From Rickettsiales bacterium (GTDB lineage: Bacteria > Pseudomonadota > Alphaproteobacteria > Rs-D84), in NCBI GenBank assembly GCA_031262525.1, contig JAISHM010000009.1:6583-70582 (forward strand): a DNA stretch of 64,000 nt, given 5' to 3'. The notes below the pieces were generated by a model. It was given only the letters and a program-made list of their open reading frames with translations. It did not search any database and was not told the origin of the DNA. The position numbers and the translations under genes are program-made. Of the stretch, positions 3,632 to 53,578 are shown piece after piece. Within the stretch, counting starts at the first letter, position 1. Each line of letters opens with the position of its first letter.

Positions 3632-3654
3632 CATTATAGATAACGGAGAAAATT

Positions 3655-4572: not shown

Positions 4573-4575
4573 ACG

Positions 4576-5616: not shown

Positions 5617-5640
5617 AAACTTTAAAGAAGAGAGAAAGAA

Positions 5641-6204: not shown

Positions 6205-6207
6205 AAA

Positions 6208-6232
6208 TGCGGGAAAACCCGCATTTTTTTTA
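6208..6232. terminator. Rho-independent terminator, bidirectional
   Basis: The hairpin TGCGGGAAAACCCGCA is followed by a T8 run, and the opposite strand is also T-rich. It sits between convergent genes. Confidence 0.6.
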
Positions 6233-6233
6233 T

Positions 6234-6560
6234 TTATTTAACAGGTTCTGAAATACTTTTAACCCATTTATCATTACCGGCGTGGCATAATGCAATAATA
6301 AAATCTATGAATGACCATATTCCTGTTACGATTATTCCAATCAAAGTTATTGTTAAAATAGTCATCGCAATACCCTGCCCTATTTTTCCAATATAATATT
6401 TATGCGCTCCAAAAACCCCCAGAAACCACAATAATATAAAATAAACCCACCATTGTTTTTTATTAGAATTTGCTTTATTACTTGGGCAGCCACAATACGG
6501 ACATTGGTTTGCTTTATCACTAATTTTTTTACCACACTCTGAACAAAAAATCATCGCCAT
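6234..6560 (-). CDS. Zinc-ribbon / TM2-domain membrane protein
   Basis: The N-terminus CSECGKK...CPYCGC is a zinc ribbon. Two TM helices carrying the GVFGAHKYYIG motif are typical of the TM2 domain. Confidence 0.55.
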   Translation of the reverse strand: MAMIFCSECGKKISDKANQCPYCGCPSNKANSNKKQWWVYFILLWFLGVFGAHKYYIGKIGQGIAMTILTITLIGIIVTGIWSFIDFIIALCHAGNDKWVKSISEPVK

Positions 6561-6670
6561 CTTAAATTCCTTTATAAAATAAATTTATATGCGGCAGATA
6601 CGATGTTTTGGGTGGTCCGACGTGTATAAAAATACAACACAAACCACTATCACCAACCACCATCACTAAT

Positions 6671-8614
6671 TTATTGTCCTGTCTGCCAATTACGCAACTC
6701 TTCTACACCCATATCCCACAGGCAGTTTTCACGAATTGCTGTTGAACTTTTGGAAACTGATGGGTCGAAACTGGGGTCGCGTCCCGCATCCCCGCCCGAT
6801 ACACCACGCAATATCTCGTTCAATGTCACGACATTACGACATGTGTTTTGGCTGGCGTCTTGTGAATTATCGCAGTCATCCGAATCCAAAACATCTATGA
6901 CTTTTTTAATTCCATTACCCGAATTACAAACCATTGCTTTATAACAACTGGGAACATTCAATGTCTGGGCGCAATATGTTTTTACACGCGTCGTGGTCCA
7001 AGACGGATTGGATTTTTCCTGGGTGTTATAGCAATCCCAAACCTCGCTGATACAGGTGTTAAAATCGGTCAGTGCCGCAGTCGCCGCATCCGAGATATTT
7101 TGTGCCTTTTCCTGGGCAAATTCCAATCTCTTTTGTTGCAGCGCTTGTGTCGCTGCAATTTTGCTGTATGCCATATTTGTTGCCTGGGTCTTTAATGCTT
7201 CGCCATATACATCACAATCAGCATTCGCGTCCAGCGCATATTTCTGAATCACACTGCGCCGCGCATCCGCCACAGGGGTGCGTAAATTACTGTATGGGTC
7301 GCCACTGGTTGAAGTGTATCCAAAACAAACCGCATTCGCAGTTGATGAATTGCTTGGGTTCGTCACAGATATATCCCCACCATCACCAGACACACTGATT
7401 TTATCGTTATAGTTATACGGTTTGTTATTAGAGCATGTTTCATAAATTCCATTAAAGCACGAATTTAACACCCGATTACAAACATTGTTATGCGCATACG
7501 CAAACAGGTCATACCCCCACATTGACGCCAAAGTATCCGCCGACGTTGTTGTAGCATCGGCAAAGATATTTCCCGTTCCGTCTAATTGTCCAACGATTTG
7601 ACCAACATTCATAAACGAACTATATAAATTATTGTTATTATCGGTCGTGATAACATTCACCTTGTCAATCGCGCTGGCGTATGTTTCCAGATTTGCCAAA
7701 ATATCAGAATCTGTCCCATTCAACACATTCATCCAATTACTTCCCCCCAGAACAAAGTCATCACTGGCGCAATACTGATTTACGAACGCAGGCGTTGATG
7801 TATAGTTATCACACTCGGTCGTTCCAGCCAACAAAGTATGCGACGAACACCATTCATTCTTTGCGGTTTGGGAACCGACTGCCACCGCATCGCGCCACGA
7901 CATACAATTCATAACCTTTTCCGCGTCGGTCAACGACATAGCGTCCGCGACACTTTCGCCCTTACTCAGAACCAGCAAAGACAATTGACCCGAAACTTTT
8001 AACAAATCTTCCTTGGCGGTTTGTAATTGCGCCTCGACATTAGAGAATGTTTTAACACGTCCCGCGCACGCGCAACGGCGTTGCGACGCGTTTCGCGCCG
8101 TGCAAATTTCATCCATACATGCGTAATAAGACGACATGCAATTGCTGTATGCATCTGCCGAAATCAAACCCGTTGTTGGGTCAACGATATTTGAATAAGT
8201 TCCCGTGTATAACGCCGACGACAATCCCGCACTGGACGATACACTGGCACGCAAACTGCCCGAGCCAACCGATACACGCGCCGCAGTCGCATTCGGAGAA
8301 ACACCCGTTCGCGCCCGCACCGCACGCGACTGGTTTGTTGTCCGTGATGCGTTAGAGCGTTGGGACACTGCACGCGATGATTGAGTTTGACTTTGCGCGC
8401 TTCCGCGTGACGCTGTCGCGCGCGTTGAAACATTACGCGTTGGTGTTTGGGTTGCGGCCTTGGATACACTGCGCGAATTTTGCGATGCGCGCGGTGACGA
8501 GCGTCCCGAAGTTGCCGTCTGGACATTGTTGCCATACCCCGCAATTGGGTCAGCAACTGCCGGCGCGAAACAAATGCAAGCGAATAACGCGATAAACGCA
8601 ATACGAATTTTCAT
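6671..8614 (-). CDS. Large secreted cysteine-rich protein with a Ser/Thr/Arg-rich low-complexity linker
   Basis: A 647 aa ORF with a signal peptide (MKIRIAFIALFACICFAPAVA). It has an S/T/R/A-rich region of about 100 aa and more than 30 Cys in the C-terminal two thirds. Confidence 0.55.
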   Translation of the reverse strand: MKIRIAFIALFACICFAPAVADPIAGYGNNVQTATSGRSSPRASQNSRSVSKAATQTPTRNVSTRATASRGSAQSQTQSSRAVSQRSNASRTTNQSRAVRARTGVSPNATAARVSVGSGSLRASVSSSAGLSSALYTGTYSNIVDPTTGLISADAYSNCMSSYYACMDEICTARNASQRRCACAGRVKTFSNVEAQLQTAKEDLLKVSGQLSLLVLSKGESVADAMSLTDAEKVMNCMSWRDAVAVGSQTAKNEWCSSHTLLAGTTECDNYTSTPAFVNQYCASDDFVLGGSNWMNVLNGTDSDILANLETYASAIDKVNVITTDNNNNLYSSFMNVGQIVGQLDGTGNIFADATTTSADTLASMWGYDLFAYAHNNVCNRVLNSCFNGIYETCSNNKPYNYNDKISVSGDGGDISVTNPSNSSTANAVCFGYTSTSGDPYSNLRTPVADARRSVIQKYALDANADCDVYGEALKTQATNMAYSKIAATQALQQKRLEFAQEKAQNISDAATAALTDFNTCISEVWDCYNTQEKSNPSWTTTRVKTYCAQTLNVPSCYKAMVCNSGNGIKKVIDVLDSDDCDNSQDASQNTCRNVVTLNEILRGVSGGDAGRDPSFDPSVSKSSTAIRENCLWDMGVEELRNWQTGQ

Positions 8615-35740: not shown

Positions 35741-35771
35741 TAAAAATGGCGCATTGCGCCATTTTTATTTA
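35741..35771. terminator. Rho-independent terminator, bidirectional
   Basis: The hairpin ATGGCGCATTGCGCCAT is followed by TTTTATTT. Confidence 0.6.
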
Positions 35772-36410
35772 TACAAAAAACAGAATTTGTTTTACAGCAT
35801 CTGGGTGTAATTTTTTCACCAACCGCCAAACACCTTCTATTTGTTTTGGCGCGGACGAAAAAATATGTAATTCGCGGGCGGGCGAAAAATTTTCAGCCAT
35901 CAACATTCCATAAAAATTTGCGATATCCACGTCTTTATCAGACAAAACTAAACCCTGTCCCGCGCCGTCTATATCATTTATATCCGCACATCTTGTGCCC
36001 CACCCAATTGGGGGTATCGCGGATATATCGGACACAAAAACAGCGCCATGATTAAAAAACAAATCTGGGGCCACAGGTTTTAATTCTGTCGTCAATTTAC
36101 CTAAAACATCTGGTGCTACAAAGATATGAACTCCATACGCCCCCGCGCGATACATCGAATAAATATCGCCAACAACCTGTTTAATATCAAAATCCTGGGG
36201 CACGACATATCGCGACCATATTTTAACATTTGATTTTTCCAGCCAGCGCCACATTTGGGATGTTGTATCATACGCGACCGATACAGCACGCGCACCAGCG
36301 CCGATTGCGCGGTCCGCAGAAAAAGCACAACCCCGTGAATCCATCGCGTCATCACACAACAACGCAATGTTATTTTTTACTTCTAAGAAAATATCAGAAT
36401 AATCTATCAT
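35769..36410 (-). CDS. Hypothetical protein
   Basis: A 213 aa ORF with good coding character and no confidently recognised domain. Confidence 0.4.
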   Translation of the reverse strand: MIDYSDIFLEVKNNIALLCDDAMDSRGCAFSADRAIGAGARAVSVAYDTTSQMWRWLEKSNVKIWSRYVVPQDFDIKQVVGDIYSMYRAGAYGVHIFVAPDVLGKLTTELKPVAPDLFFNHGAVFVSDISAIPPIGWGTRCADINDIDGAGQGLVLSDKDVDIANFYGMLMAENFSPARELHIFSSAPKQIEGVWRLVKKLHPDAVKQILFFV

Positions 36411-36455: not shown

Positions 36456-37433
36456 ATGAGAAAAAAATTTAATATCTTACTGATTGACCTGTTGTGGATT
36501 GTGGCGATTGCTCTGTTCGCATCTTTTTGGTTTAACATTCGTTTTAATTTTAATATCTGGTCTGGCGCGCATTGGGAATACCTGTCTGCGGCCCAGTTAT
36601 CACCAACTGGGGTTGTATCATCTTTTTATATTTCTGGGATTGTGTTTGTGGCGTTATTTTTATTTGGTATATTTATAATCAACCACCCACGTAATTCTGG
36701 GATACGCGCAAATAAAGCAGATTCACCCGCAACCGAATTGCATGCGCCACTACCAAATAATTTACAGCCATTGGGGATTGACCCGAATTATTCCCCATTA
36801 CCTTCGGCACCTGTATTACCACGTCCGCCGCGTATTCTAAACTCAATCAACGCACCGATACCACCGCGCAACCCAAGCACTCCGATTGCGGCCCCCATAC
36901 CCACAACACCAGATAATACAGAAGTAATAAATTCAGAACTGGAAAATCTGTTTTCATCATTGAATTATATGGTGGTGCGCCCCCTGCCCCGAATCAGCGG
37001 GCAACAATATAATATGTTTGCACTGGGCAATAATGAGGTTATGTATCTGGGGCTGTATGATTTACACACCGGGAATATAACTGCGGGCGATTCGTTAGAC
37101 GCGCAATGGACTGATGAGATGGGTTATAAATTTAATAGCCCTGTTAAAATAATGGCGAATGCTTTACATAAAATACGCGATATGATTTCCAAAACACTGG
37201 ATGACGAGATAAAAATACAAATAAATGGTTTTATTGTTATGAATAACACCAGCATAACAAACATAGGAATCGCAAATCAACTGGGCCGGGACGCAAATAT
37301 ATCTGTGTATAACTCGGTTGATGAATTGCGCAATAATATCGCTATGAACACTGCACCTACAACACCAGACGCATCAGAGACATTCGTATCATACACAGAA
37401 TATATGACGACACTGGTACAAACACTGACATAA
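36456..37433 (+). CDS. Membrane-anchored Pro-rich protein with a C-terminal globular domain that may be NERD-like
   Basis: It has two N-terminal TM helices, a Pro-rich linker (PLPSAPVLPRPPRIL...), and a C-terminal roughly 170 aa domain. It is the first gene of a tight three-gene operon. Confidence 0.4.
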   Translation: MRKKFNILLIDLLWIVAIALFASFWFNIRFNFNIWSGAHWEYLSAAQLSPTGVVSSFYISGIVFVALFLFGIFIINHPRNSGIRANKADSPATELHAPLPNNLQPLGIDPNYSPLPSAPVLPRPPRILNSINAPIPPRNPSTPIAAPIPTTPDNTEVINSELENLFSSLNYMVVRPLPRISGQQYNMFALGNNEVMYLGLYDLHTGNITAGDSLDAQWTDEMGYKFNSPVKIMANALHKIRDMISKTLDDEIKIQINGFIVMNNTSITNIGIANQLGRDANISVYNSVDELRNNIAMNTAPTTPDASETFVSYTEYMTTLVQTLT

Positions 37434-37439
37434 AGAACA

Positions 37440-37952
37440 ATGCAACACACACAAACGACCGCTATTCGCAGACTATCTGAAATGTTTATGGATGATATCC
37501 CTGTAACCGAGGTCGCGGTAAAATCCAACATAACAATTCCAAACGATTGGTTCCAAACCTATATACGGGTTCGACGTGATTTTATGTCGTCTTTGTCTGA
37601 TTCTATCCCTGAATTAGCATTTATGAATCTGCCCCAGGATATTTTTATGGATTTGCTGATGGGGCGTAAGTTGCCACCAGATACATCATTGCGTTTTCGT
37701 ATTCCCTTGTGGTTGGGCGGCGAAATATCTGTGGATAATATGTTTATGACACGAACATTTCCAAACTCGCATAATCTGGATAGATTTATCATAGAGCAAT
37801 CAGGCGCTGCGACAATGTGGCTGCCGAATCCGGTTAAAAAGATTTATATTTCGGCGCATACTGCGGGCGGTGGCGACGGGGGAAATGCTACATCAGACAG
37901 ACTATCACAATTGGCGGCGGGCATAGTCGCATCAAACAGGGGGATGGAATGA
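37440..37952 (+). CDS. Hypothetical protein, second gene of the operon
   Basis: A 170 aa ORF starting 7 bp after the upstream stop. No recognisable domain. Confidence 0.4.
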   Translation: MQHTQTTAIRRLSEMFMDDIPVTEVAVKSNITIPNDWFQTYIRVRRDFMSSLSDSIPELAFMNLPQDIFMDLLMGRKLPPDTSLRFRIPLWLGGEISVDNMFMTRTFPNSHNLDRFIIEQSGAATMWLPNPVKKIYISAHTAGGGDGGNATSDRLSQLAAGIVASNRGME

Positions 37953-38392
37953 CAACCGACGAATTCTTATCCTGGGCAACGACCCGTGGCGTCAAATTAT
38001 TACCCAAAATACAAATGGGGGAAATTGCGTCTGCGAATTTGACTATACAGCATCAGCGTATTGCAATGATGCCGATTTCGCTGATGAACTTTTATCAAAA
38101 CATAGCGGGCGGTGCATATCTGGGAAACGCGTATATTTTTGGTATTGCTGACTCAAAGGAATCTGGACAAACAACCTATGAAATACCTGGGATTATATCT
38201 GTAAATCGTGAATTATCGGGATTACAGGCAGTAACAGGTCGCACTATTTTTGGGCGAAATGATTTGTTTTGGTTTGGTTTTGATGCCTTTGGAAAGTTTT
38301 ATATGTTAAATAATATAAATCTAAAACCTGTGCGACAATACGATGATTTATATCGTGCAATGACGGATTGCCTGGCGATTGGAAAAATATAA
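37949..38392 (+). CDS. Hypothetical protein, possibly SUKH/SMI1-KNR4-like and immunity-protein-like
   Basis: A 147 aa ORF whose start overlaps the upstream stop (ATGA). The sequence pattern KLLP...FYQNIAGG...IFGRNDLFWFGFDAFGKFY resembles the SUKH superfamily; this is from memory. Confidence 0.35.
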   Translation: MTTDEFLSWATTRGVKLLPKIQMGEIASANLTIQHQRIAMMPISLMNFYQNIAGGAYLGNAYIFGIADSKESGQTTYEIPGIISVNRELSGLQAVTGRTIFGRNDLFWFGFDAFGKFYMLNNINLKPVRQYDDLYRAMTDCLAIGKI

Positions 38393-38398
38393 CCTGCT

Positions 38399-38602
38399 AT
38401 GAAAAAACTCTCGGTAAATATATCTGGACACCAAACCTCTATCAGTATAGAACCAGAATTTATGGCGACATTACAAATTTTGGCGCGGCGACGCGGGGAA
38501 TCGGTCGCAAAAATAATCCATGACATTGACATGGTACGCGCACCGAATACAAATCTGTCCAGCGCGGTCCGTATATGGGTACTGCAACAAATGAAATTAT
38601 AA
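38399..38602 (+). CDS. Ribbon-helix-helix domain protein (RHH_4 family)
   Basis: NISGHQTSISIEPEFMATLQILARRRGESVAKIIHDIDMVRAPNTNLSSAVRIWVLQ matches the GHxTSxSLExxF...LSSAxRxxVL pattern of this alphaproteobacterial family. Confidence 0.65.
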   Translation: MKKLSVNISGHQTSISIEPEFMATLQILARRRGESVAKIIHDIDMVRAPNTNLSSAVRIWVLQQMKL

Positions 38603-38846
38603 ACTGGTGGTCAATACTGGTAATACGCGTTACACCAACGCTGACTATAACCCACAGCACAAACTCTACACTCTACACTCTGAAATCTGCGCCCCAGGAT
38701 TGTGATTTTTTGCCTGTGAAATCTTACCTAGGAATTTCAGTTGAATTATTTTATAAATTCAACTATAATTGAATAAAAGCCTAGGAAAAAGTTATTGTAA
38801 AAAATATACTTCCTGGCAAATGGTTAAAGCACAAAGGAGAAAAAGT

Positions 38847-39092
38847 ATGACACATAATAGCATCTGGGGCGCGATTGAAAAATTCGCGGCCGACCATAAT
38901 TTATCCTGTTCTGGGCTGGCCAAAAATAGCGGTCTGGACCCGACAACATTCAATAAATCCAAGCGTTGGAGCCGCGAGGGTCAGCCACGCTGGCCATCAA
39001 CCCAGTCTATTGCGAAAATCCTGTCTGCGACACATTCGGACATTTCAGAGTTTGCAAAATACCTGGGGTCAGATGCATCTGAACAAAGATAA
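38847..39092 (+). CDS. Helix-turn-helix transcriptional regulator (Cro/CI-like)
   Basis: The start is at the ATG at 38847, with AAGGAG 8 nt upstream. The motif IWGAIEKFAADHNLSCSGLAKNSGLDPTTFNKSKR...RWPSTQSIAKIL matches a conserved small alphaproteobacterial HTH family. Confidence 0.6.
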   Translation: MTHNSIWGAIEKFAADHNLSCSGLAKNSGLDPTTFNKSKRWSREGQPRWPSTQSIAKILSATHSDISEFAKYLGSDASEQR

Positions 39093-39095: not shown

Positions 39096-39126
39096 ACCGA
39101 CCCATTCCAATGGGTCAGTTTTTTGA
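39096..39126 (+). terminator. Rho-independent terminator
   Basis: The hairpin GACCCATTCCAATGGGTC is followed by a T7 run. Confidence 0.6.
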
Positions 39127-39213: not shown

Positions 39214-41163
39214 ATGATATGGATTTACTATGATACCCCAAAAGGTATTCTGTTGGCGCAAATTTTTATAGATTTTCACGATAAACGATGGGAAAAATAC
39301 GACATAGATTTTTCGTATATTGCGGACGCGGTGCTGACCGAATTAAAGATAACCATAAATCCAGAAATATCATTGGTTTTAACCAATGACACCGAAATCC
39401 AGAAATTAAACCGCGAATACCGCGGATTGGATAAATCCACCAATGTTTTATCGTTCGAGACCGGCGACCCCGAATTACTGGGGGATATATTTATATCGTA
39501 TGACACAACAATGCGCGAAAGCGGAAAGTCAGAATTTATAAATCACACAACCCATTTAATAATTCATGGTATTTTACATCTGTTGGGGTATGACCACATA
39601 GATGACAAAGACGCGGATAAAATGGAGGCGTTGGAAATAAAGATATTAAAAAAATTAAAAATTAAAAATCCATATAAATCGCGAATCACCCCATCTGTTA
39701 TTATCGTACCCATTGCATTGGGCGCGGTGGCAAGTTTGGGATTTGCACCATTTCATTTATGGTTTTTAACAATCATTGCGTTTTGCGCAATGTATTTTAT
39801 TACAATTAAATCAGAAAAAATTATTTTACCCGCGGCGTTGTTTGGGGCATCATACGCGATTACAAATTTCTGGTGGGTATTAAATTCAATTTTTGTGGTT
39901 CCAGAATTGGCATCACAATTTGCGATTTTTACAATCCCGGGGTTGATTGGAATTGGATTGGTTGGGGCAGCGATTTTTTCACTCCCTTTTATATTGTTAA
40001 AACCTTTAACCCCAGGAACGAATGCGTCGGGCGCGCGACGTCCATTTATTTTCGCAGTGCTATGCGCAACGCTTTTTTATCTGCGCGAGTGGTTATTTAC
40101 TGGATTCCCTTGGAACCCTGTTGCGAACATTTTTATAAACAGCGGCGCAATCGCAAATTCAATGTCCGCAATTGGTGCGATTGGATTATCTTTTATAATT
40201 ATGGGATTGACTGCTGGGATTGCAGAGTTTATAAATAATAAGAAAGTAAAATTTCCATTAGTTGCATTTTCTGTTTTGTTGATAATCGGCGCATGGTTTG
40301 GATATAAAAATATGGAACGGATTCGCATCTTGCCCGATTTACCCCAAACAATCCGTATTGTTCAACCGGCATATTCACAATTACAAAAGGCAACCCATTC
40401 GCGCCAAGACATGATAAAAAACGCGCAAAAAAACATAGATACACTTGTTGCGATTGCGCGACATAATACCGGTGTAAAACCAGATATAATAGTATTTCCA
40501 GAAACAGCATACCCATTTATAATTGACCACAACACAAAGAATATAAACACACTTAAAAAAATTAAAAAGCCAATAATTATGGGCGCGAATACCTATCAAA
40601 ACTGGGGGCATTTTAATTCAATGATTATGATAAACAAAACTGGACGGGTTGAAAAAATATACTCTAAATCGCACCTGGTTCCATTTGGGGAATATCGCCC
40701 TTTTGGGGACATTATTCCAACACCTGGACAATTGACGAAGGGTAATGGCGCAGAGATTATAAATTTTTCAGGATTAAACTTTGCGCCTGCGATTTGTTAT
40801 GAAATTATTTTTTCAGACTCGTTGGTGCCGCGCAATGCCATGCCAAATATGATAATAAACATAACAAATGATACTTGGTTTGGCGCAACGCCGGGCACTT
40901 ATCAACATTTGGATATGGCGCGGACCCAGGCGATTGAAATGGGTCTGCCGGTGGTGCGTGCGAATTATTCAGGAATATCGGCGTTTATAAACGCAGACGG
41001 AACGATACGAACATCATTACCTGTTGGTGTGGCGGGGGTTTTGGACGCGCGGGTTGGCGGCACGATTTTTACCCCATACCGCCAACTGGGGTTGCATAAA
41101 ACATTTATTTTAATTTTATTATTTTCAATCGTGATGATTTTTATAACCCGTAAAAAAGCATAA
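39214..41163 (+). CDS. lnt: Fusion protein: YbeY endoribonuclease domain plus apolipoprotein N-acyltransferase Lnt
   Basis: The N-terminal roughly 150 aa carry the YbeY motif HTTHLIIHGILHLLGYDH and the tail MEALEIKILKKLKIKNPY. The ORF then continues without a stop into Lnt, which has TM helices and a CN-hydrolase domain (…PFGEY…, catalytic Cys region). It is a single 649 aa ORF. Confidence 0.7.
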   Translation: MIWIYYDTPKGILLAQIFIDFHDKRWEKYDIDFSYIADAVLTELKITINPEISLVLTNDTEIQKLNREYRGLDKSTNVLSFETGDPELLGDIFISYDTTMRESGKSEFINHTTHLIIHGILHLLGYDHIDDKDADKMEALEIKILKKLKIKNPYKSRITPSVIIVPIALGAVASLGFAPFHLWFLTIIAFCAMYFITIKSEKIILPAALFGASYAITNFWWVLNSIFVVPELASQFAIFTIPGLIGIGLVGAAIFSLPFILLKPLTPGTNASGARRPFIFAVLCATLFYLREWLFTGFPWNPVANIFINSGAIANSMSAIGAIGLSFIIMGLTAGIAEFINNKKVKFPLVAFSVLLIIGAWFGYKNMERIRILPDLPQTIRIVQPAYSQLQKATHSRQDMIKNAQKNIDTLVAIARHNTGVKPDIIVFPETAYPFIIDHNTKNINTLKKIKKPIIMGANTYQNWGHFNSMIMINKTGRVEKIYSKSHLVPFGEYRPFGDIIPTPGQLTKGNGAEIINFSGLNFAPAICYEIIFSDSLVPRNAMPNMIINITNDTWFGATPGTYQHLDMARTQAIEMGLPVVRANYSGISAFINADGTIRTSLPVGVAGVLDARVGGTIFTPYRQLGLHKTFILILLFSIVMIFITRKKA

Positions 41164-44498: not shown

Positions 44499-45392
44499 AT
44501 GATTGAAAAGAATAAAATACATTTGCAAGATTGTATTATTGGCATAAAGGAATTGCCAAACGATTCTATGGATATTATTATCGCTGACCCGCCTTATAAT
44601 ATCGGAAAAGATTTTGGAAATAATTCTGATAAACGCAGTGATAGGGATTATATTGAGTGGGTAAAACTATGGTTGCTTGAATGTCAGCGTGTGTTAAAAC
44701 CAACAGGAACAATGTTTATTTACGGATTTGATGAAATCTTAGCCCACATTTCCGTTTTATTACCGATTGAACGGCAAAGGTGGCTTATCTGGTATTACAC
44801 AAATAAAAATGTTCCGTCATTAAATTTTTGGCAAAGAAGCCACGAATCTATAATTTGTTATTGGCGTGATAAACCATTATTTAATCGTGACGAAGTTCGT
44901 GAACCTTATACTGACGGATTCTTAAATGGCAGCGCTGGACGCACAAGACCCGCAGGGAAAGGCAGATTCGCCGCAAATGGTGGTAAAGAAACAATTTACC
45001 AAGCAAATGAAAACGGCGCTTTACCGCGCGATGTTATTTCCCAATCAACGCTTGCTGGTGGTGCTGCATTAAAAGAAAGAATCATTTATTGTAAAGATTG
45101 TAAATGTATTGTTGAACCAACAAAACGAAAAGAACACGATGGGCATAATTTAATAATCCACCCAACGCAAAAACCTTTGGAACTTACCGACAGACTTATA
45201 AAATCGTGCAAACCAAACAAAAAATATAATGTTTTAATTCCATTTTGTGGCAGCGGTTCAGAATGTATATCTGTATTGCAAAATGGTGGTAATTATATTG
45301 CGTATGAAATCAACCCTGATTATGTCTTGCTTGCTGAAAAAAATATAGAAAGTATGAATAAGAAAAAACAACCAAATTTATTTGGAGAATAA
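44499..45392 (+). CDS. Beta-class N4/N6 DNA methyltransferase (PF01555 type)
   Basis: It has the catalytic IIADPPYN near the N-terminus and the AdoMet motif HPTQKPLELTDRLI...VLIPFCGSGSE at the C-terminus. The local region is AT-rich. Confidence 0.8.
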   Translation: MIEKNKIHLQDCIIGIKELPNDSMDIIIADPPYNIGKDFGNNSDKRSDRDYIEWVKLWLLECQRVLKPTGTMFIYGFDEILAHISVLLPIERQRWLIWYYTNKNVPSLNFWQRSHESIICYWRDKPLFNRDEVREPYTDGFLNGSAGRTRPAGKGRFAANGGKETIYQANENGALPRDVISQSTLAGGAALKERIIYCKDCKCIVEPTKRKEHDGHNLIIHPTQKPLELTDRLIKSCKPNKKYNVLIPFCGSGSECISVLQNGGNYIAYEINPDYVLLAEKNIESMNKKKQPNLFGE

Positions 45393-45394
45393 AA

Positions 45395-46027
45395 ATGCAG
45401 AAATTACTAAATAAGGGAAATTTTAAGAAAATAGATGAAGTGTTTTTAACCAAAAGCATTGACGCTTTTCAGCAAATTACAAACATTCAAACAGAATATG
45501 AAAAACTGGATACAGATACTTTTATGAATGAAGTTAGGGATTCTATTGCTGCAAAGTATCTACACTATACCCACGTAAACATAGAAAAACACGGCTTTGA
45601 TGCTAGAAGAAGTTCCGCAAACAAAGACTTTGAATTTGATTATTTAGAAGTAAAATCCGCAAGTTATGATGCAAAATCTTGGCAAGCAACTTTTAATGAT
45701 ACAAATTTAGAAAAAGCGAATTTATTCAAGGAGAAAAATATTTATTTGGCTTTATCTGTTTGGCGTGCCGCATCTGAATTATTGTTTGTTGTTTATGGTA
45801 AAAACAAGGAAATTGGTAATTTTTTAGAGGCAAAAGTTAAATGGTTTAAAAAAGGAAATACTGTTCGTAGCACGCAATCCATAACCATTTCAGATTTAAT
45901 TTGTAAATATGGATTCAAAGTATATGCTGTGCATAAAACACCAAATGAGATTTTTGATTTGTTTCAGGTAAGAAATGGTTGTAGAAAAATACCAAGAGAT
46001 TCTATATTATCAATTACGGATTTATAG
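45395..46027 (+). CDS. Putative type II restriction endonuclease partner of the methylase
   Basis: A 210 aa ORF starting 3 bp after the methylase stop. It has a PD-(D/E)xK-like element, DFEFDYLEVK. No other homology was recognised. Confidence 0.45.
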   Translation: MQKLLNKGNFKKIDEVFLTKSIDAFQQITNIQTEYEKLDTDTFMNEVRDSIAAKYLHYTHVNIEKHGFDARRSSANKDFEFDYLEVKSASYDAKSWQATFNDTNLEKANLFKEKNIYLALSVWRAASELLFVVYGKNKEIGNFLEAKVKWFKKGNTVRSTQSITISDLICKYGFKVYAVHKTPNEIFDLFQVRNGCRKIPRDSILSITDL

Positions 46028-46149
46028 GTATTTTATGCCTAAAATCCACAAAAAAAGACATATGTTAGACATAGAATGAACGGATAAAAATAAAATCGCC
46101 CGCAAGGTTATATTTCTTGCGTGTTTCATTTTTCGGATCAGGTAATTTT

Positions 46150-46740
46150 TTAATACTGTGTGTATTTATAATTTCTAACAAAAGGCTGAAACTTTATAAA
46201 ACATTCTTGTTTTAATTTTTTAATCGCCTTGCTTGATTTTATAAAATTTTGCGCGAATTCTTTATTGTTTAAATCTCTGTTTGATTTCGTATTACGCCAA
46301 ATACGTCCGTATTTTAATGGAATGTTTCTCATTTCCGTATTATAGAAACCCATTATACTCATAATTTCTGATTGCGCTGATTGCGAGAAACGCTTTATTG
46401 TAAAATAATCTATGTTCGGCTCTTTATAAAATACATCCAACCTACCATCCAGAATAAACAAAATTTTATCATTATACAAAGTATCTTTTTTACGAATCCA
46501 TATACCTTTTTGATTTATATAATTATTCAAACTGGCCAAAGTTGAATAATAATTCAAAGGTTCTATTCTAAACAACCTTTGATTCTCATTAAAAATAAAT
46601 TTCAAATCGCCAGAATTTTGATTATCCGACATTATTTCAGATTTTGTGATAATATGTTGTATTTTACCAAAGGTCATAAAACTGACCGTGTCCACATCAT
46701 AATCAACCACCAAACCAACTAAACTTGTGTTATTTTGCAT
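46150..46740 (-). CDS. Hypothetical protein in the AT-rich accessory region
   Basis: A 196 aa ORF with an ATG start and no signal peptide. It is preceded by a TTGACA-16-TATATT candidate promoter with a G8 tract upstream. Confidence 0.4.
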   Translation of the reverse strand: MQNNTSLVGLVVDYDVDTVSFMTFGKIQHIITKSEIMSDNQNSGDLKFIFNENQRLFRIEPLNYYSTLASLNNYINQKGIWIRKKDTLYNDKILFILDGRLDVFYKEPNIDYFTIKRFSQSAQSEIMSIMGFYNTEMRNIPLKYGRIWRNTKSNRDLNNKEFAQNFIKSSKAIKKLKQECFIKFQPFVRNYKYTQY

Positions 46741-48628: not shown

Positions 48629-50362
48629 TTATTCTGGAAATTTAACCGCCGCCGACATTTCACGGACAAATTCCAATACAGATTTTGTTTCTTGGGCATC
48701 AACCCCCAATCTGCGCAAAGTAATCGTATTATCCGCCATTTCCTTGTCCCCGACAACACCGATAATCGGGGTTTTCGCCAAGGACAATTCACGAATTTTA
48801 TAATTTACTTTTTCCGCGCGCAAATCCGCCCGCGCCCGCACGCAAACATTTTTTAATTCCGCAACAACTGAGCGCGCATAATCATCAAACCGCTCTGACA
48901 CTGGCGCAATCACGACGGGCTCTGGCGACAACCACAACGGCAAATTCCCGCCCGTGTTTTCAATCAACATTCCCATAAAGCGTTCAATAGAGCCCAACAT
49001 TGCGCGATGCAACATAATCGGGCGATGCTTTTGTCCGTCTTCCCCGACATAGGATAAATTAAATCGTTCTGGCAGATTCATATCCAATTGGATTGTGCCG
49101 CATTGCCAAACACGTCCAATTGAATCATGCAAATAAATATCTATCTTTGGTCCATAAAATGCCGCATCTTGTTGCGCAATTTCATACGGAATTTTATTAC
49201 TTTCCAATGCGTGTTTTAATGCCCCCTCGGTAAAGTCCCAGGTTGTATCATCACCAATCCGAAATTCTGAATCCTTGCGCGTCGCCAATTTTACAGAGAT
49301 ATCATCAAATCCAAATTTAGAATAAATATCTTTTACAAAATCCATAATTTTAATAACCTCACGTTCCAGTTGCGCCTCGGTACAAAAAATATGCGCATCG
49401 TCTTGGGTAAATTCGCGCACCCGCATAATCCCGTGCAGGCCGCCCGCCGCTTCATAGCGATGAACTTTGCCAAATTCTGCCACATACAATGGCAAATCTT
49501 TATACGATTTTATACCCTGACCGAATACCAGCATTCCACCTGGACATGACATAGGTTTTATACAAAATTGACGACCATCTTCGGTTTGTCCGCTATAATT
49601 ATGTTCGCCATACTTTGCCCAATGCCCAGACGTTTCCCATAAACTTTTATCCATCAGTCCTGGCGTTGAAATTTCCAAGTACCCTGCCCTTTCTTGACGC
49701 ATGCGCACATATTCAATCAAACGACGATAAATATAATATCCCTTGTCATGCCAAAATACGCTGCCTGGCGCAAATTCAGGTTCAAAATGAAACAGGTCCA
49801 TATCGCGCCCGATTTTACGATGGTCGCGCTTTGCGGCCTCTTCCATTTGTTTCTCGAACGCCACCAAATCGTCCGCGTTTGCAAAAGCATCAACATAAAC
49901 CCGCTGCATCATTTTATTTTTAGAATCGCCACGCCAATATGCACCCGCGACACTACGAACTTTGAAACCATCGCGCGGCAAATCTTTACTTGATTCTACA
50001 TGCGGACCGCGACATAAATCTGTAAAATCACGAAAAGTATAAACAGACAACTTTTCCCCCGACGCGTCATACTCATTTAACCATTCCATTTTATAAGGCT
50101 GGTCCGCGAAAATCTGTTTTGCCTCGGACAAAGACACTTCGCGCCTTTCAAACCGACCATTTGATTTAATCAGTTCGCGCATTTCTTTTTCAATTTTTGG
50201 AAAATCATCTTCGGTAATCTTATATTCCATATCAAAGTCATAATAGAACCCATTTTGGGTTGCGGGACCGCCACCAAATTTTACATCCGGCCATATTTTT
50301 TTTACCGCCGCCGCCAAAATATGCGCCAAAGAATGTCTAATTATTTCAATATCGTATGCCAT
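48629..50362 (-). CDS. thrS: Threonine--tRNA ligase lacking the N-terminal TGS (N1) domain
   Basis: It starts at the N2/editing domain (IEIIRHSLAHILAAAVKKIWP) and has the class II core motifs and an anticodon-binding domain. At 577 aa it is shorter than the typical roughly 640 aa. Confidence 0.85.
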   Translation of the reverse strand: MAYDIEIIRHSLAHILAAAVKKIWPDVKFGGGPATQNGFYYDFDMEYKITEDDFPKIEKEMRELIKSNGRFERREVSLSEAKQIFADQPYKMEWLNEYDASGEKLSVYTFRDFTDLCRGPHVESSKDLPRDGFKVRSVAGAYWRGDSKNKMMQRVYVDAFANADDLVAFEKQMEEAAKRDHRKIGRDMDLFHFEPEFAPGSVFWHDKGYYIYRRLIEYVRMRQERAGYLEISTPGLMDKSLWETSGHWAKYGEHNYSGQTEDGRQFCIKPMSCPGGMLVFGQGIKSYKDLPLYVAEFGKVHRYEAAGGLHGIMRVREFTQDDAHIFCTEAQLEREVIKIMDFVKDIYSKFGFDDISVKLATRKDSEFRIGDDTTWDFTEGALKHALESNKIPYEIAQQDAAFYGPKIDIYLHDSIGRVWQCGTIQLDMNLPERFNLSYVGEDGQKHRPIMLHRAMLGSIERFMGMLIENTGGNLPLWLSPEPVVIAPVSERFDDYARSVVAELKNVCVRARADLRAEKVNYKIRELSLAKTPIIGVVGDKEMADNTITLRRLGVDAQETKSVLEFVREMSAAVKFPE

Positions 50363-50405
50363 TTTTTATCCCTATATTTATTCCAATTATTATAGTTTCT
50401 TTTTA

Positions 50406-51164
50406 TCAAAAGTCAATAATACTACCAAAAAGGACGGCAAAAAAGAAACACACCGACCCGCCAATTACAAACAAATGCCAAATCGTATGACTGAATTTTA
50501 ATTTCCGCCACAGATAAAATATAATCCCCAACGAATAAGACAATGCCCCCGCCAACATAAACCATAACCCCCGCACTGGCACACTTTCAATCACCCACGG
50601 CAAAATAAATAATATGGTCCAGCCCATAATCAGATATAATAAAACAATCCATTTTGGTTGTTCTTTGGGTTTTTTAATTTTCATAATTGTGCCAACAATC
50701 GTAATCGCCCACAATAATCCAAACACAGACCAACCAATCGGGCCGCGTAAATTCACCAAACAAAACGGAGTGTATGTTCCCGCAATCAGCGCATAAATCG
50801 CGACAGAATCCCAAACCTCAAAAAAACACTCGGACTTTTGCCCTATCATTGCATGACACATTGTTGAACCGAAATAAAGCGTAAACATAGTCAATCCAAA
50901 AATCGCGCAAGACACCAAAGCCCATGGGTCACCCTTTAACGCGGCGAAAACACATAATATGGTCAGACCCGCAATCGCGAGTCCTATACCAATCCCATGT
51001 GTCAAAACATCCATCACCCATTCTGATTTTGCTGGCGCGCGTTCCCAACGAAATAATCCCGCGGCACGCATTGCGCACAGCAATCCATTTGCGTGCTGGT
51101 CTGATTTTATCCGTTTTAGTTTTTGTTTAACTTGCTGACGCTTTTTAATAATTTTTTTCAACAT
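50406..51164 (-). CDS. Hemolysin III family (PAQR/YqfA) membrane protein
   Basis: It has seven TM helices and conserved His residues (THGIG, …HxxxH). Confidence 0.7.
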   Translation of the reverse strand: MLKKIIKKRQQVKQKLKRIKSDQHANGLLCAMRAAGLFRWERAPAKSEWVMDVLTHGIGIGLAIAGLTILCVFAALKGDPWALVSCAIFGLTMFTLYFGSTMCHAMIGQKSECFFEVWDSVAIYALIAGTYTPFCLVNLRGPIGWSVFGLLWAITIVGTIMKIKKPKEQPKWIVLLYLIMGWTILFILPWVIESVPVRGLWFMLAGALSYSLGIIFYLWRKLKFSHTIWHLFVIGGSVCFFFAVLFGSIIDF

Positions 51165-51169
51165 TTTAT

Positions 51170-52879
51170 TTATCCATTTATTATTTTATTTATTCTATTT
51201 TTTACCATTCCCGGGCGATGTTTTTCCATAACCTGCATTATTGAATACAGGTCGGGGGTTTGCGCACGCCCCGTAATCGCAACACGCAAATTCATCGCAA
51301 CATCACCATTTTTTATATCCATATCTGATGCAATTTGGACAATTTTATTCCACCATATATTTTTATCATCATTTTCGTTAAAGCCACGGACGAATGCGTC
51401 CAGCGCGTTTTTATTATATTCAAATTCGGTGTTTTGTGTATATCCGAATTGTTTATATTTTTCTGGCAATTCATCTTTATCAAAAAAGAAACAGATAGAT
51501 TCCACTGTCTGTTTCCAAGTAATAAAATCTTTTCTAACCCGTTTCGGATTATCCCGTTCAATACCAAAAATATCTATTAAATAATCCTGGTGTTTATCTA
51601 TAAATAAACGCATACCAGATAAAGTATATATTCCCGACGAAACATAATCTGTATGAGTGTATGCCAGCGATAAACCCGCTGGATTCCAATCGGACATCTG
51701 TTTATAAATTTCCCCTGCGCTCAACCCTGCAATATACTCTTTTGCCCACCAATCCAATTTATCAGGATTATACAGCGCGCCCGATGTTGGTATTTTTTTA
51801 ATGTTTATTTTATAATCATCTTTACGCCAATCTAATCCTGGATTTTTTGTTTTTTCTTCTTCATAACGACTGGACATTATATTTAACAAGTACTCTAATA
51901 CGGCATTCGGGGGATACCCTTCTTTTATAAAATAATCTACATTTGCCTCGGGGTCTTTGCGTTTTGATATTTTGCGTTGTTTGCCAGTTTCATCGTCAAT
52001 CTTGTCAATCGTGCTGGTATGAACATAAACAGGTGGCGTCCATCCAAGCGCCCCAAACATTTGCAAATGTTTTGGCGTTGATGGCAACCATTCTTCACCG
52101 CGTACAACATGCGTTGTTCGCATAAAATGGTCATCAACAACATGTGCAAAGTGATAGGTTGGCAAACCATCTGTTGATTTAATTATAATTTCATCAACAT
52201 TATTTTCAGGCATCGCAATAGAGCCGCGCGACGCGTCTTTTACAAAAACTTTTCTAGACGGGTCACCATCGGAATAAAAACGAATACTGGGGATTTCACC
52301 ATTATCCAAATGCGCGATTATTTCAGATTCCGATAAATCGCGGTCGCGCGCCCACGCGCCATAAATCCCAGTAGGCTCGCCATTTTCTGTTTGCTGTGCG
52401 CGAATATCAGATAAATTTTCCGCTGTCAAAAAACAAGGGTATGCCGCACCACGACGCAAAAATTCCGCCGCAACGCTGTGATAAATATCTTTGCGATGAC
52501 TTTGTAAATAAGTCCCGTAATCGCCCTTGCTTTCTATTTCATTATTTGCATTAAATACAGGACCTTCACCCGATTGCAACCAAAACGCGTTTTGTGTTCC
52601 CATAATTAAACTGATTGCGCCATCAACCTCTCGCGCGATATCTGTATCTTCTATGCGCAGCATAAAAACACCATCCGATTGTTTTGCCAATTTCCAATTT
52701 AACAACATCTGATACAAACCACCAATATGCATATAACCCGTTGGGCTTGGGGCAAAACGCGTTACCATTGCGCCATCTGGCAAATTACGCAGTGGAAATT
52801 TTTGTTCCAGTTCCGCAATTGTATATTTTGCATTGGGCAGTAATCTTTTTATTAAATTCTCTGATAAACCTGGGCGCAT
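51170..52879 (-). CDS. gltX: Glutamate--tRNA ligase with an extended C-terminus
   Basis: It has the class I HIGH motif (PSPTGYMHIGG), LRIEDTD, and a KMSKS region. At 569 aa it has a long C-terminal extension. Confidence 0.8.
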   Translation of the reverse strand: MRPGLSENLIKRLLPNAKYTIAELEQKFPLRNLPDGAMVTRFAPSPTGYMHIGGLYQMLLNWKLAKQSDGVFMLRIEDTDIAREVDGAISLIMGTQNAFWLQSGEGPVFNANNEIESKGDYGTYLQSHRKDIYHSVAAEFLRRGAAYPCFLTAENLSDIRAQQTENGEPTGIYGAWARDRDLSESEIIAHLDNGEIPSIRFYSDGDPSRKVFVKDASRGSIAMPENNVDEIIIKSTDGLPTYHFAHVVDDHFMRTTHVVRGEEWLPSTPKHLQMFGALGWTPPVYVHTSTIDKIDDETGKQRKISKRKDPEANVDYFIKEGYPPNAVLEYLLNIMSSRYEEEKTKNPGLDWRKDDYKINIKKIPTSGALYNPDKLDWWAKEYIAGLSAGEIYKQMSDWNPAGLSLAYTHTDYVSSGIYTLSGMRLFIDKHQDYLIDIFGIERDNPKRVRKDFITWKQTVESICFFFDKDELPEKYKQFGYTQNTEFEYNKNALDAFVRGFNENDDKNIWWNKIVQIASDMDIKNGDVAMNLRVAITGRAQTPDLYSIMQVMEKHRPGMVKNRINKIING

Positions 52880-52891
52880 AACTTATTCCTG

Positions 52892-53578
52892 TTGTTGCTT
52901 TTTATAATTCCATATTTTATACTGAAACTTATGGAAAATCAAGACATACGGACTTTTGGACGACGCCATGGCAAAAAACTATCCACGCGCCAGCAATGGC
53001 TGGTTGATAATTTACTGCCTGCCCTTGCCCACACAGACACAGAAACTGATACAATCTTAGAAATTGGTTTTGGCGCGGGCGAACATTTAATGTATTTGGC
53101 GCAACATAATCCCGATAAAATTATTATCGGCGCAGAACCATTTATAAATGGTGTCGCGTCGTTGCTGGCAAATATCACAGATGCGCAAAATCTGGTCAAA
53201 AACGAATATAAAAACATCAGAATTTATCCAGACGATGTCCGAAAATTTTTTATTGAGAACAAAAATTTTTCACCAGAAAAAATTTATATTTTACATCCCG
53301 ACCCATGGCCAAAGGCGCGTCACGAAAAACGCAGATTGTTAAATACGGAATTTATAAAATTGCTCTTGACGCATTCGGGCGCGGGGTTAAAGGAAATTAT
53401 CATCGCAACCGACCACCTGGATTATGCAAGTTGGATAGAAGAACAAATTAAAAAAATCAACAACGCAAAATACGAAATTTCAGATATTGCGCCACAGGGT
53501 GGATTAAATACTCGTTATCATAACAAAGATATGTTCGGGGCAAATAAAACAAAATATATTATTTTATCGCCCAAATAA
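52892..53578 (+). CDS. trmB: tRNA (guanine46-N7)-methyltransferase TrmB
   Basis: It has ILEIGFGAGEHL (SAM binding) and IYILHPDPWPKARHEKRRL, the TrmB signature. Confidence 0.75.
   Translation: MLLFIIPYFILKLMENQDIRTFGRRHGKKLSTRQQWLVDNLLPALAHTDTETDTILEIGFGAGEHLMYLAQHNPDKIIIGAEPFINGVASLLANITDAQNLVKNEYKNIRIYPDDVRKFFIENKNFSPEKIYILHPDPWPKARHEKRRLLNTEFIKLLLTHSGAGLKEIIIATDHLDYASWIEEQIKKINNAKYEISDIAPQGGLNTRYHNKDMFGANKTKYIILSPK

Follow-up and report, generated by a model that had tools for sequence, protein, structure and literature searches.

We find that two overlapping genes of a gut alphaproteobacterium, g2 and g3, are related to an HNH nuclease toxin domain and to the YrhA protein family, respectively, and that they are retained in a four-gene operon that is core to the order Rs-D84. 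The genes are located in a 64,000-nucleotide stretch from the assembly of a Rickettsiales bacterium, referred to here as the window. We put the chances at about even that they represent a domesticated toxin–immunity pair held in a membrane-associated complex; the homology is solid, and the function is what we infer. If true, it would be a plain example of how a nuclease toxin and its immunity protein, a conflict module, are domesticated into a core cellular component, one kept by Rs-D84 genomes that have lost most biosynthesis. The analysis also assigns an ancestry to three protein families that were formerly “hypothetical”.

Organization and conservation of the operon

The operon lies on the forward strand. 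Its first gene, g1 (36456–37433), encodes a protein of 325 aa with two transmembrane (TM) segments; g2 (37440–37952) encodes a predicted cytoplasmic protein of 170 aa; and g3 (37949–38392) encodes a protein of 147 aa. An earlier note, made from this DNA alone, had proposed these three ORFs, and we confirm them. It had also described a 7-bp gap between g1 and g2, followed by an ATGA overlap. The stop codon of g2 does overlap the start codon of g3 in this way, and the gap between g1 and g2 is 6 nt (37434–37439). A further gene (38399–38602), encoding a 67-aa RHH_4 protein, begins only 6 nt past the end of g3. Thus, the genes are coupled as the note had claimed, with the unit comprising four genes (g1-g2-g3-RHH_4) rather than three.

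The RHH_4 protein matches Pfam PF13467 over residues 2–64 of 67 (66.6 bits against a cut-off of 25, E 2e-18), and its gene is found directly behind g3 in 83 of 87 loci, with a median identity of 56%. Neither the RF32 nor the L087 version of the operon has this gene, and a literature search on RHH_4 (PF13467) found nothing. The note had named both an RHH and an HTH regulator downstream. The first belongs to the unit, and the second was rejected as a member because it adjoins the operon in only 4 of the 87 loci. The HTH gene starts 166–244 nt beyond RHH_4, depending on the start codon (the ATG at 38847 is the likely start), and has its own promoter-like site and inverted repeat upstream. This site and palindrome were the only notable signals in promoter scans, which performed at about chance level, and terminator scans, which were marginally above it.

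On the other side of the operon, a 213-aa gene on the reverse strand (35769–36410), unassigned to any family, is separated from the divergently oriented g1 by 45 bp of intergenic DNA. It adjoins g1 in 80 of 87 loci and is a conserved operon partner within Rs-D84, and it was not detected beside the RF32 operon versions. Median identity of its protein across the clade is 28.7%, with no match in Pfam, NCBIfam, PADLOC, PHROGs, or PDB sequences.

The operon is lineage-core and is conserved at housekeeping level in reduced genomes. About 80 species-representative genomes share the order of the genes (the 213-aa gene diverging from g1-g2-g3-RHH_4), their orientation, and their tight packing. Thus, the arrangement is far from chance, and the gene-neighborhood comparison that the earlier note had suggested as a check shows the order to be kept. 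It is present in about 80 species as a single copy in a syntenic position, with g3 placed right behind g2 in the Rs-D84 loci. For g2, the median identity to the window's copy is 57.6%, which resembles the values for GltX (55.8%) and TrmB (54.3%). At least 269 genomes carry g2, and a g2 search at E ≤ 1e-3 among 1.84 billion proteins matched just 83 representatives. One locus is located on a 958,618-bp record that is titled as a circular MAG chromosome. Rs-D84 is an uncultured order of gut Alphaproteobacteria with genomes mostly smaller than 1 Mb, and its members are predicted to rely on other cells and to lack nucleotide synthesis (PMC12306168).

A phage or mobile origin was rejected, as no relatives were found in viral contigs and window g2 had no plasmid match. 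PADLOC returned no meaningful match for any of six proteins, and PHROGs none for the locus proteins. A syntenic, single-copy, lineage-core operon that is empty in both of these resources, and whose g2 is conserved like GltX and TrmB, is no variable or mobile conflict cassette, which speaks against the possible conflict or defense module of the earlier note.

Conservation of this kind could reflect an ordinary lineage-specific housekeeping complex (e.g., for the envelope, division, or DNA maintenance), whose ancestry is irrelevant to its role and which has no type IV coupling protein (T4CP) connection in Rs-D84. The operon is indeed conserved like housekeeping genes and sits, as a core single-copy unit of reduced genomes, among suf, trx, dksA, ybeY-lnt, trmB, and gltX. 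It contains no T4CP or secretion gene, and a search for T4CPs found none elsewhere in the 64-kb window. However, no housekeeping family matches g1, g2, or g3, which agrees with the note's remark that none has a confidently recognizable housekeeping function. A housekeeping role would also leave unexplained why the three genes stay together and flank VirD4 in a sister clade (see below). We consider this explanation unlikely.

The operon could also be a chromosomal addiction toxin–antitoxin system, with g2 as a non-nuclease toxin, g3 as its antitoxin, and RHH_4 as the autoregulator, which is kept because its loss is lethal and not because it is useful. Its small, tightly coupled genes share an operon with an RHH DNA-binding protein, and g2-g3 descend from a toxin–immunity pair. 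Such modules tend to be patchily distributed, present in several copies, and mobile, whereas this operon keeps strict synteny in at least 80 species and is as conserved as housekeeping genes. Furthermore, the RHH gene comes last, not first, and is missing from two versions of the operon (RF32 and L087), and the conserved membrane protein g1 and the VirD4 link would be left unexplained. We thus regard an addiction system as very unlikely.

Ancestry of g2 and g3

Profile comparisons indicate that g2 and the YhhZ-type HNH (His-Me finger) toxin domain share a common origin, and this homology is solid. The g2 family HMM matches residues 253–387 of E. coli K-12 YhhZ at 67–72 bits and the C-termini of IncHI/ICE “HNH endonuclease” proteins at up to 74 bits (67–74 bits across YhhZ and these proteins). 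A profile restricted to Rs-D84 g2 scores 25.7 bits against the plasmid HNH proteins, and hhalign aligns the Rs-D84 profile with enterobacterial HNH domains over 114 columns (84.5% probability, E 6.9e-6). The plasmid relatives themselves pass the Pfam HNH model PF01844, with 27.1 bits against a threshold of 21.4. When the RF32 g2 domain was used as a tblastn query, it matched 458 plasmids, 433 of which are conjugative (E 5e-13).

The best matches of the AF2 model of g2 (pLDDT 86) in Foldseek are HNH domains, each of them non-significant (E 0.25 or worse). The best PDB-sequence match of the RF32 g2 profile, a marginal one, is the pyocin AP41 DNase, which is aligned across the HNH motif; the g2 profile had no significant match among PDB sequences. 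Single-sequence scans of window g2 against Pfam (HNH included), NCBIfam, PADLOC, and PHROGs gave no match.

The HNH core of g2 (residues 78–117; 37671–37790) is degenerate in the alignments. The histidine that gives the His-Me finger its “His”, the general base at the end of strand 1, is missing, with F86 in its place, and the HH dyad position thus reads R85-F86. S110 and D114 replace the later motif histidines, and window g2 lacks the metal-ligand His/Asn set of the HNH motif. R85, S110, and D114 all correspond to His in the RF32 relatives and in pyocin AP41. P89, G93-G94, and the structural Asn N100 of the motif are kept.

This loss extends well beyond the window. The Rs-D84 dyad is R plus F, L, M, W, or T in 82 of 85 sequences and HH in none, and no HH dyad occurs among 106 alphaproteobacterial sequences. 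In alphaproteobacterial relatives outside Rs-D84, the dyad is H-hydrophobic, with I, V, L, or M at the general-base position in 21 RF32 and other sequences. The earlier note had allowed for g2 as an active effector or toxin. Because the general-base His, and in Rs-D84 all motif His, are replaced, g2 is probably no active nuclease toxin, and its DNase activity has probably been lost. Several polar residues are nevertheless invariant (R85, R87, D114, Q120, Y136, N149, and R154) or nearly so (H140 and D153). These kept residues could form a new site, and the loss of the canonical His is not proof that all activity has gone. A C-terminal motif, GG(N/K)xxxDR, is conserved across the entire g2 family.

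Both sequence profiles and the predicted structure indicate that g3 is a diverged YrhA-family member with a SUKH fold. Its AF2 model (pLDDT 91) has as its best Foldseek match 3d5p_A of the SMI1/KNR4 family (E 7.8e-3, probability 1.00, TM 0.53/0.58, 140 columns), followed by 2pag (probability 0.80). Against NCBIfam YrhA (NF038335), window g3 aligns over nearly its full length at 23.2 bits (E 5e-5), which is below the curated cut-off of 55. The g3 proteins of Enterousia (26.4 bits) and L087 (38.2 bits) also score below this cut-off, and RF32 orthologues exceed it (68.5 and 65.8 bits). An hhalign comparison of g3 with a set of enterobacterial YrhA and RF32 g3 proteins gave 97.6% probability over 133 columns (E 4.2e-12). 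In Pfam, weak matches are found across the g3 family to SMI1_KNR4 (11 of 63 members, best E 1.8e-4) and SUKH_6 (2 of 63). Window g3 has no Pfam match at E ≤ 1, and thus reaches no SUKH gathering score, and the g3 profile has no significant match among PDB sequences. The SUKH resemblance that the earlier note had seen in g3 is therefore upheld, with YrhA as the more precise assignment. Its suggestion that such a gene would follow a toxin-type gene also holds, as g2 derives from a YhhZ-type HNH nuclease toxin domain.

The membrane protein g1 and a coupling protein in RF32 relatives

The g1 protein is predicted to be an inner-membrane protein. Hydropathy identifies two TM helices (residues 7–25 and 57–75), which are followed by a Pro-rich linker (residues ~86–165, with 19 Pro among 80 residues), in agreement with the two helices and proline-rich stalk described in the earlier note. 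K/R residues are placed on the N-terminal side and after TM2. This charge distribution predicts an N-in/C-in topology with a cytoplasmic C-terminal domain. The hairpin (TM1, a conserved loop, and TM2; 36474–36680) was delimited by hydropathy and the family alignment. It is the best-conserved part of g1 (median identity 41.8%, compared with 26% in the C-terminal domain), and its loop has the consensus F(G/N)FNIFSxxHWxYL. Long and short forms of g1 both occur in the family.

The C-terminal domain of g1 (residues ~166–325) is NERD-like. The note had guessed at a NERD-type nuclease here; support for this is weak and recurrent, and stays below threshold. Five of 14 long-form g1 members match Pfam NERD (PF08378, PD-(D/E)xK-like) weakly (best E 0.0048), as does 1 of 28 g1 members, and NERD is the sole recurrent family among the matches of this region. 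Its conserved W and S-P positions and strand pattern are shared with the NERD consensus. Unlike NERD proteins, the domain lacks the conserved ExK lysine (the PD-(D/E)xK catalytic residue) in its alignment, is joined to a two-TM anchor via the Pro-rich linker, and has lost a core segment in most Enterousia genomes. Its acidic positions are variable, and the invariant residues are W62, S72, P73, and N113 (numbered by the domain alignment). Window g1 itself has no Pfam match, NERD included, and so does not reach the gathering score. Single-sequence scans against NCBIfam, PADLOC, and PHROGs were equally empty, and the profile of the C-terminus matched nothing significant among PDB sequences.

In gut Alphaproteobacteria of the RF32 type, these three genes surround a gene for a VirD4-type coupling ATPase (g1–VirD4–g2–g3). 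Every RF32 locus with enough upstream sequence has VirD4 immediately before the g2-like gene, and g1-like genes precede VirD4. Gaps around VirD4 are −1 to 36 nt, and the gap between the g2-like and g3-like genes is −17 to 3 nt in the loci measured. The Walker A and B motifs of the RF32 VirD4 are intact. We found no other virB genes within about 8–10 kb of the RF32 operons. Among the 120 matches listed in a VirD4 homologue search, only RF32-type proteins occur, and the VirD4 protein of “Azospirillum sp. CAG:260” is listed in >7,000 assembly blocks. A literature search for the combination of a NERD domain, a type IV coupling protein, and an HNH protein in Alphaproteobacteria found nothing. The g1–VirD4–g2–g3 arrangement represents an undescribed conserved operon of abundant human and animal gut Alphaproteobacteria. 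It offers a concrete handle on the use of T4CPs by uncultured, possibly partner-dependent bacteria.

The RF32 loci bear on whether the operon is an active effector–immunity module, in which g2 is a toxic effector that is possibly type IV-delivered to partner or competitor cells, g3 confers immunity, and g1 is an export adaptor. Directly after VirD4, the RF32 g2-like gene encodes a long N-terminal extension (“MWDWSG” plus a P/Q-rich region). The three His that its protein keeps align with the metal ligands of colicin/pyocin DNases, whose roles are established for colicin E9. The family-wide GG(N/K)xxxDR motif could be a recognition signal, and g2-g3 share with YhhZ-HNH/YrhA their homology, the toxin-then-immunity order, and overlapping genes. 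A nuclease effector would also make biological sense, given the prediction that Rs-D84 bacteria rely on other cells and lack nucleotide synthesis (PMC12306168). Yet none of 106 alphaproteobacterial sequences has the general-base His, and the other motif His are gone as well in the window clade. There is no sequence polymorphism, orphan immunity gene, or mobility, and window g2 has neither a trafficking domain nor a PADLOC match, in a window without a T4CP. An active effector is therefore improbable in our judgment.

The domesticated-complex reading, which we favor, would work as follows. Having ceased to cut DNA, g2 would persist with g3 as a tight heterodimer through the old toxin–immunity interface. 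The NERD-like domain of membrane-anchored g1, which is catalytically degenerate and predicted to be cytoplasmic, may be the docking site of this dimer. Originally, and possibly still, the complex could recognize substrates or handle DNA at the inner membrane, beside a type IV coupling protein. RHH_4 would bind DNA, either to autoregulate the operon from the 45-bp divergent promoter region or to assist in DNA recognition.

A more far-reaching version, which is speculative and rather doubtful, is that a type IV coupling-protein machine of gut Alphaproteobacteria has taken on a disarmed HNH/YrhA pair as a lasting accessory. Together with NERD-like g1, the pair would provide a platform for recognizing substrates or DNA, one that has become indispensable in the partner-dependent, sub-megabase Rs-D84, for example in DNA or protein transfer to or from the cells that these bacteria live on.

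Several observations were counted against the domesticated complex. As to the coupling protein, these are the lack of a T4CP in the window operon and of virB genes near the RF32 operons. As to the proteins, they are the non-significant fold matches of g2, the sub-threshold NERD matches of g1, and the deletion of the NERD-like g1 core segment in most Enterousia genomes.

Comparison with known toxin–immunity systems

The g2-g3 pair most closely resembles enterobacterial loci in which an HNH gene and a YrhA gene are adjacent. These comprise YhhZ and the IncHI-plasmid and ICE loci, so that the pair occurs both as a T6SS Hcp–toxin fusion and on IncHI plasmids and ICEs. A published classification lists YhhZ as a His-Me finger effector fused to Hcp (PMC5714182), and Hcp-ET1, an Hcp–HNH-DNase fusion, is a reported T6SS toxin with an immunity protein (PMC6730261). 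Set beside the YhhZ-YrhA and Hcp-ET1 pairs, the g2 family matches the YhhZ C-terminal domain (by its HMM) and the g3 family matches the YrhA family; gene order is the same as in YhhZ-YrhA, and the second gene overlaps or abuts the first. In contrast to these systems, g2 has no Hcp or other trafficking domain. The window pair also differs from YhhZ-YrhA in having R-F in place of the HH dyad and a g3 below the YrhA cut-off (23 versus 55 bits). It lies outside any T6SS or island, in a core operon that also encodes a NERD-like membrane protein and an RHH protein.

Among annotated proteins, the g2 domain has its closest relatives in the IncHI-plasmid and ICE pairs, which are listed as “HNH endonuclease” and “YrhA family protein”. 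The two genes of these pairs are laid out like g2-g3, and we count their link to conjugative type IV machinery as a further likeness. Their HNH proteins are 345–353 aa long, have both histidines of the HH dyad in place, and score above the Pfam HNH threshold, whereas window g2 is degenerate. They are also mobile, with conjugative plasmids making up 433 of the 458 records, whereas the window pair is chromosomal and vertically inherited. A g1-like gene was looked for beside the enterobacterial HNH-YrhA pairs and was not found.

The fold of g3 agrees with that of SUKH (SMI1/KNR4) immunity proteins of polymorphic toxin systems (3d5p, 2pag), and its gene is likewise immediately 3′ of a nuclease-toxin-derived gene. 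However, g3 shows neither immunity-gene arrays nor variability, its partner toxin domain lacks catalytic residues, and window g3 is below every SUKH Pfam threshold.

The RF32 loci recall the VirD4-dependent X-Tfe/X-Tfi pairs of Xanthomonas and Stenotrophomonas, as their g2-like/g3-like pair comes directly after the VirD4 gene. X-Tfe effectors carry a VirD4-interacting C-terminal domain, XVIPCD, and the conserved C-terminal region of the RF32 g2-like protein could similarly serve recognition. Unlike in X-Tfe/X-Tfi pairs, XVIPCD was not detected, the general-base His is missing, no virB genes are near the RF32 loci, and the window operon has no VirD4 gene.

Polymorphic toxins in general are linked to trafficking or secretion, and window g2 is a stand-alone 170-aa protein without such a link. 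Strain variability, orphan immunity genes, and mobility are likewise not seen for g2-g3. What the pair does share with polymorphic toxin systems is the placement of the immunity gene immediately 3′ of the toxin gene, here with an ATGA overlap.

The operon in Rs-D84 genomes

The operon is present in the window as the earlier note described it. The open reading frames g1 (36456-37433, 325 aa), g2 (37440-37952, 170 aa) and g3 (37949-38392, 147 aa) match the claimed coordinates exactly, and the ATGA overlap between g2 and g3 is there; the gap between g1 and g2 is 6 nt rather than 7 bp. The ribbon-helix-helix gene RHH_4 (38399-38602), whose Pfam score of 66.6 bits clears the cut-off of 25, begins only 6 nt past the end of g3. 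Therefore, the coupling proposed for g1, g2 and g3 holds, but the unit comprises four genes, not three.

The common layout, established from the 80 loci kept plus others, is a 213-aa gene on the minus strand, divergent from g1, followed by g1, g2, g3 and RHH_4. Among the 87 loci used for gene counts, g1 is present in 85, g2 in 86, g3 and the RHH gene in 83 each, and the 213-aa gene in 80. The HTH regulator noted downstream, in contrast, adjoins the operon in only 4 of the 87. With each species represented by one genome, at least 269 genomes carry g2. All relatives come from uncultured Alphaproteobacteria of the gut, the rumen and termites, ‘Candidatus Enterousia’ among them. They belong to the GTDB order Rs-D84, whose genomes are mostly <1 Mb and for which dependence on other cells is predicted (PMC12306168).

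Compared with the window, the median identities are 57.6% (g2), 56.2% (RHH_4) and 45.2% (g3); those of the housekeeping neighbours are 55.8% (GltX), 54.3% (TrmB) and 48.2% (YbeY-Lnt). Divergence is faster for g1 (28%) and for the 213-aa gene (29%). The viral contigs searched yielded no relatives, and g2 of the window has no match among plasmids. The operon is a vertically inherited core unit, not a mobile or polymorphic cassette. We consider it very improbable that such a unit, whose g2 and g3 nevertheless derive from a toxin and its immunity protein, is an addiction cassette.

The 213-aa gene (35769-36410, minus strand) is conserved throughout Rs-D84. Its product has no PDB sequence match and no detectable family according to Pfam, NCBIfam, PADLOC or PHROGs; on visual inspection, its pattern may recall a DeoC-like TIM barrel. 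The HTH gene (38847-39092, plus strand) encodes a small protein with a weak HTH_26 match (E 0.013). It has its own promoter-like site (38741-38769, within an upstream region at 38733-38770), overlapped by a 15-nt inverted repeat, and is followed by a terminator-like hairpin (39099-39116). Beyond it, a single 649-aa ORF (39214-41163, plus strand) fuses the endoribonuclease YbeY to apolipoprotein N-acyltransferase (LNT_N + CN_hydrolase); this fusion, of 596-673 aa, adjoins the operon in other Rs-D84 genomes. In Enterousia genomes, the operon has thrS, a HlyIII-family gene, gltX and trmB as direct neighbours. In the window this block lies at 48629-53578, ~10-15 kb off, beyond ybeY-lnt and ftsK, and its displacement points to local rearrangement between Rs-D84 sublineages. 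A stretch of very low GC at 44499-46740 (0.28-0.31 at 45-47 kb), which opens with an ORF bearing a DPPY methyltransferase motif (44499-45392) followed by two small unassigned ORFs, may be an acquired restriction-modification island.

Related operons outside Rs-D84

In RF32, a sister clade of gut Alphaproteobacteria, the operon comprises, in this order, one or two g1-like genes, a VirD4/TraG coupling protein gene, a g2-like gene and a g3-like gene (e.g., ‘Azospirillum sp. CAG:260’). The VirD4 protein has the Pfam domains T4SS-DNA_transf, TrwB_AAD_bind and TraG-D_C, with intact Walker A (APPGTGKT) and Walker B (LFVLDE) motifs, and its gene immediately precedes the g2-like gene in every RF32 locus with enough upstream sequence, with gaps of -1 to 36 nt. 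No other virB genes occur within ~8-10 kb of the RF32 operons. The 64-kb window contains no such coupling protein; in Rs-D84, VirD4 was either lost from the operon or is encoded elsewhere in the genome. For genes that stand beside VirD4 in the sister clade, an unrelated housekeeping role seems unlikely.

Further unassigned genes flank the RF32 operons (e.g., loci L109, 5522-8629, and L086, 7557-8495). Among their products are coiled-coil-like proteins (361 and 476 aa), a g1 paralogue truncated to 167 aa that retains only the TM hairpin, and a 312-aa protein following the g3-like gene.

In a third lineage (L087), g2 and g3 occur as a pair with neither g1 nor VirD4; thus, the pair is the ancient core. 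No g1-like gene lies beside enterobacterial HNH-YrhA pairs, and g1 is an alphaproteobacterial addition. The L087 pair (6001-7034) is divergent from two large proteins (1945-5818, minus strand; 704 and 582 aa), whose N-termini appear to resemble prepilin/pseudopilin-type hydrophobic segments.

The membrane protein g1 and the HNH site of g2

The two TM helices and proline-rich stalk ascribed to g1 are borne out by hydrophobic helices at residues 7-25 and 57-75 and by 19 prolines in an 80-residue linker. K/R residues before TM1 and after TM2 suggest an N-in/C-in topology. Aligned across the family, g1 has a two-TM hairpin that is conserved, a Pro-rich linker that varies and a C-terminal domain. 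The long form of this domain, which contains the segment D.H.G.I.A.EGGDSKW....SPV, is found in the window, its close relatives, locus L089 and RF32. For the proposed NERD-type nuclease, NERD is the sole recurrent family, with weak Pfam matches in 5 of 14 long-form sequences (best E 0.0048). The ExK lysine is not conserved in the domain alignment. In most Enterousia-type genomes (L001-L085; e.g., L003, 5066-6001) a short form retains the TM hairpin and C-terminal helices but lacks, through a clean deletion, the ~29-residue NERD-like core (…HGGEITA.EGGDSKW….SPV…).

Neither g2 nor g3 has a hydrophobic segment. In colicin-type HNH DNases, the general base is the second His of a dyad (colicin E9). 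Aligned in register, pyocin AP41, the E. coli Hcp-fused protein YhhZ and IncHI proteins have HH here, whereas the RF32 clade has H followed by a hydrophobic residue and g2 of the window has R-F. With all loci counted, the dyad is R + F/L/M/W/T in 82 sequences from Rs-D84 and H + I/V/L/M in 21 sister or intermediate ones; HH occurs in none of them. The window clade has S110 and D114 at the two later His positions. Thus the catalytic residues of the HNH site are lost in g2. The structural residues P89, G93-G94 and N100 are kept; only P89, G94, N100, Q120 and D153 are invariant family-wide. Most matches from fold searches with the g2 model are HNH domains, none of them significant. Model confidence is low around the C-terminal motif GG(N/K)xxxDR.

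With toxin-immunity ancestry on one side and this loss on the other, there is little chance that the genes still form an active effector-immunity module. We favor a reading in which a non-toxic g2-g3 heterodimer persists and would dock on the domain that membrane-anchored g1 exposes to the cytoplasm. At the inner membrane, this complex might recognize substrates or DNA, with RHH_4 as a putative regulator or DNA-binding accessory.

Relationship to nuclease toxin-immunity pairs

The earlier suggestion that g3 is SUKH-like is well supported. Its AF2 model (pLDDT 91) best matches the SMI1/KNR4 protein 3d5p (prob 1.0, TM 0.53/0.58), the next meaningful match being SUKH-type 2pag, and weak SMI1_KNR4 matches occur in 11 of 63 family members. 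The window protein scores 23 bits with NCBIfam ‘YrhA family’, under the cut-off of 55, which the RF32 g3-like protein (143-149 aa) exceeds. A profile-profile comparison with enterobacterial YrhA and sister-clade proteins gives 97.6% probability (E 4e-12). We conclude that g3 has the SUKH fold and is a diverged member of the YrhA family.

When 1.84 billion representatives were searched exhaustively by HMM, only 83 g2 relatives emerged, and every one with a source name is alphaproteobacterial. The more distant relatives have an N-terminal extension (‘MWDWSG’ plus a P/Q-rich stretch) and the motif N(I/V)H(L/I/V)(K/R)xPxxYGG...FSNL..IQTHPxHxxIHKF. The top PDB sequence match of this subfamily's profile is the pyocin AP41 DNase (E 0.06), aligned exactly on the HNH motif. 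Using tblastn, the subfamily domain was found on 458 plasmids (433 conjugative, mostly from Enterobacteriaceae), as the C-terminus of a 345-353-aa ‘HNH endonuclease’ that passes Pfam HNH and is directly followed by a ‘YrhA family protein’ gene; the HNH + YrhA pair also occurs in an E. coli ICE. The whole-family g2 HMM scores 74 bits on the plasmid HNH proteins; with YhhZ of E. coli K-12 it reaches 67-72 bits, in the C-terminal domain. A profile from Rs-D84 only still gives 25.7 bits on the plasmid proteins and, by hhalign, 84.5% probability against enterobacterial HNH domains (E 7e-6, 114 columns).

YhhZ has been placed among the Hcp-fused His-Me finger effectors of the T6SS (PMC5714182), and yrhA lies directly downstream of yhhZ (PMC12428005), as we also find. 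For Hcp-ET1, an Hcp-HNH-DNase fusion, activity as a T6SS toxin and a cognate immunity protein have been reported (Ma et al. 2017, reviewed in PMC6730261). Together with the HMM and hhalign matches, these precedents show g2-g3 to be homologous to a nuclease toxin-immunity pair that is already known. The family assignments first proposed were right, whereas ‘conflict module’ probably fits the operon's ancestry rather than what it does now.
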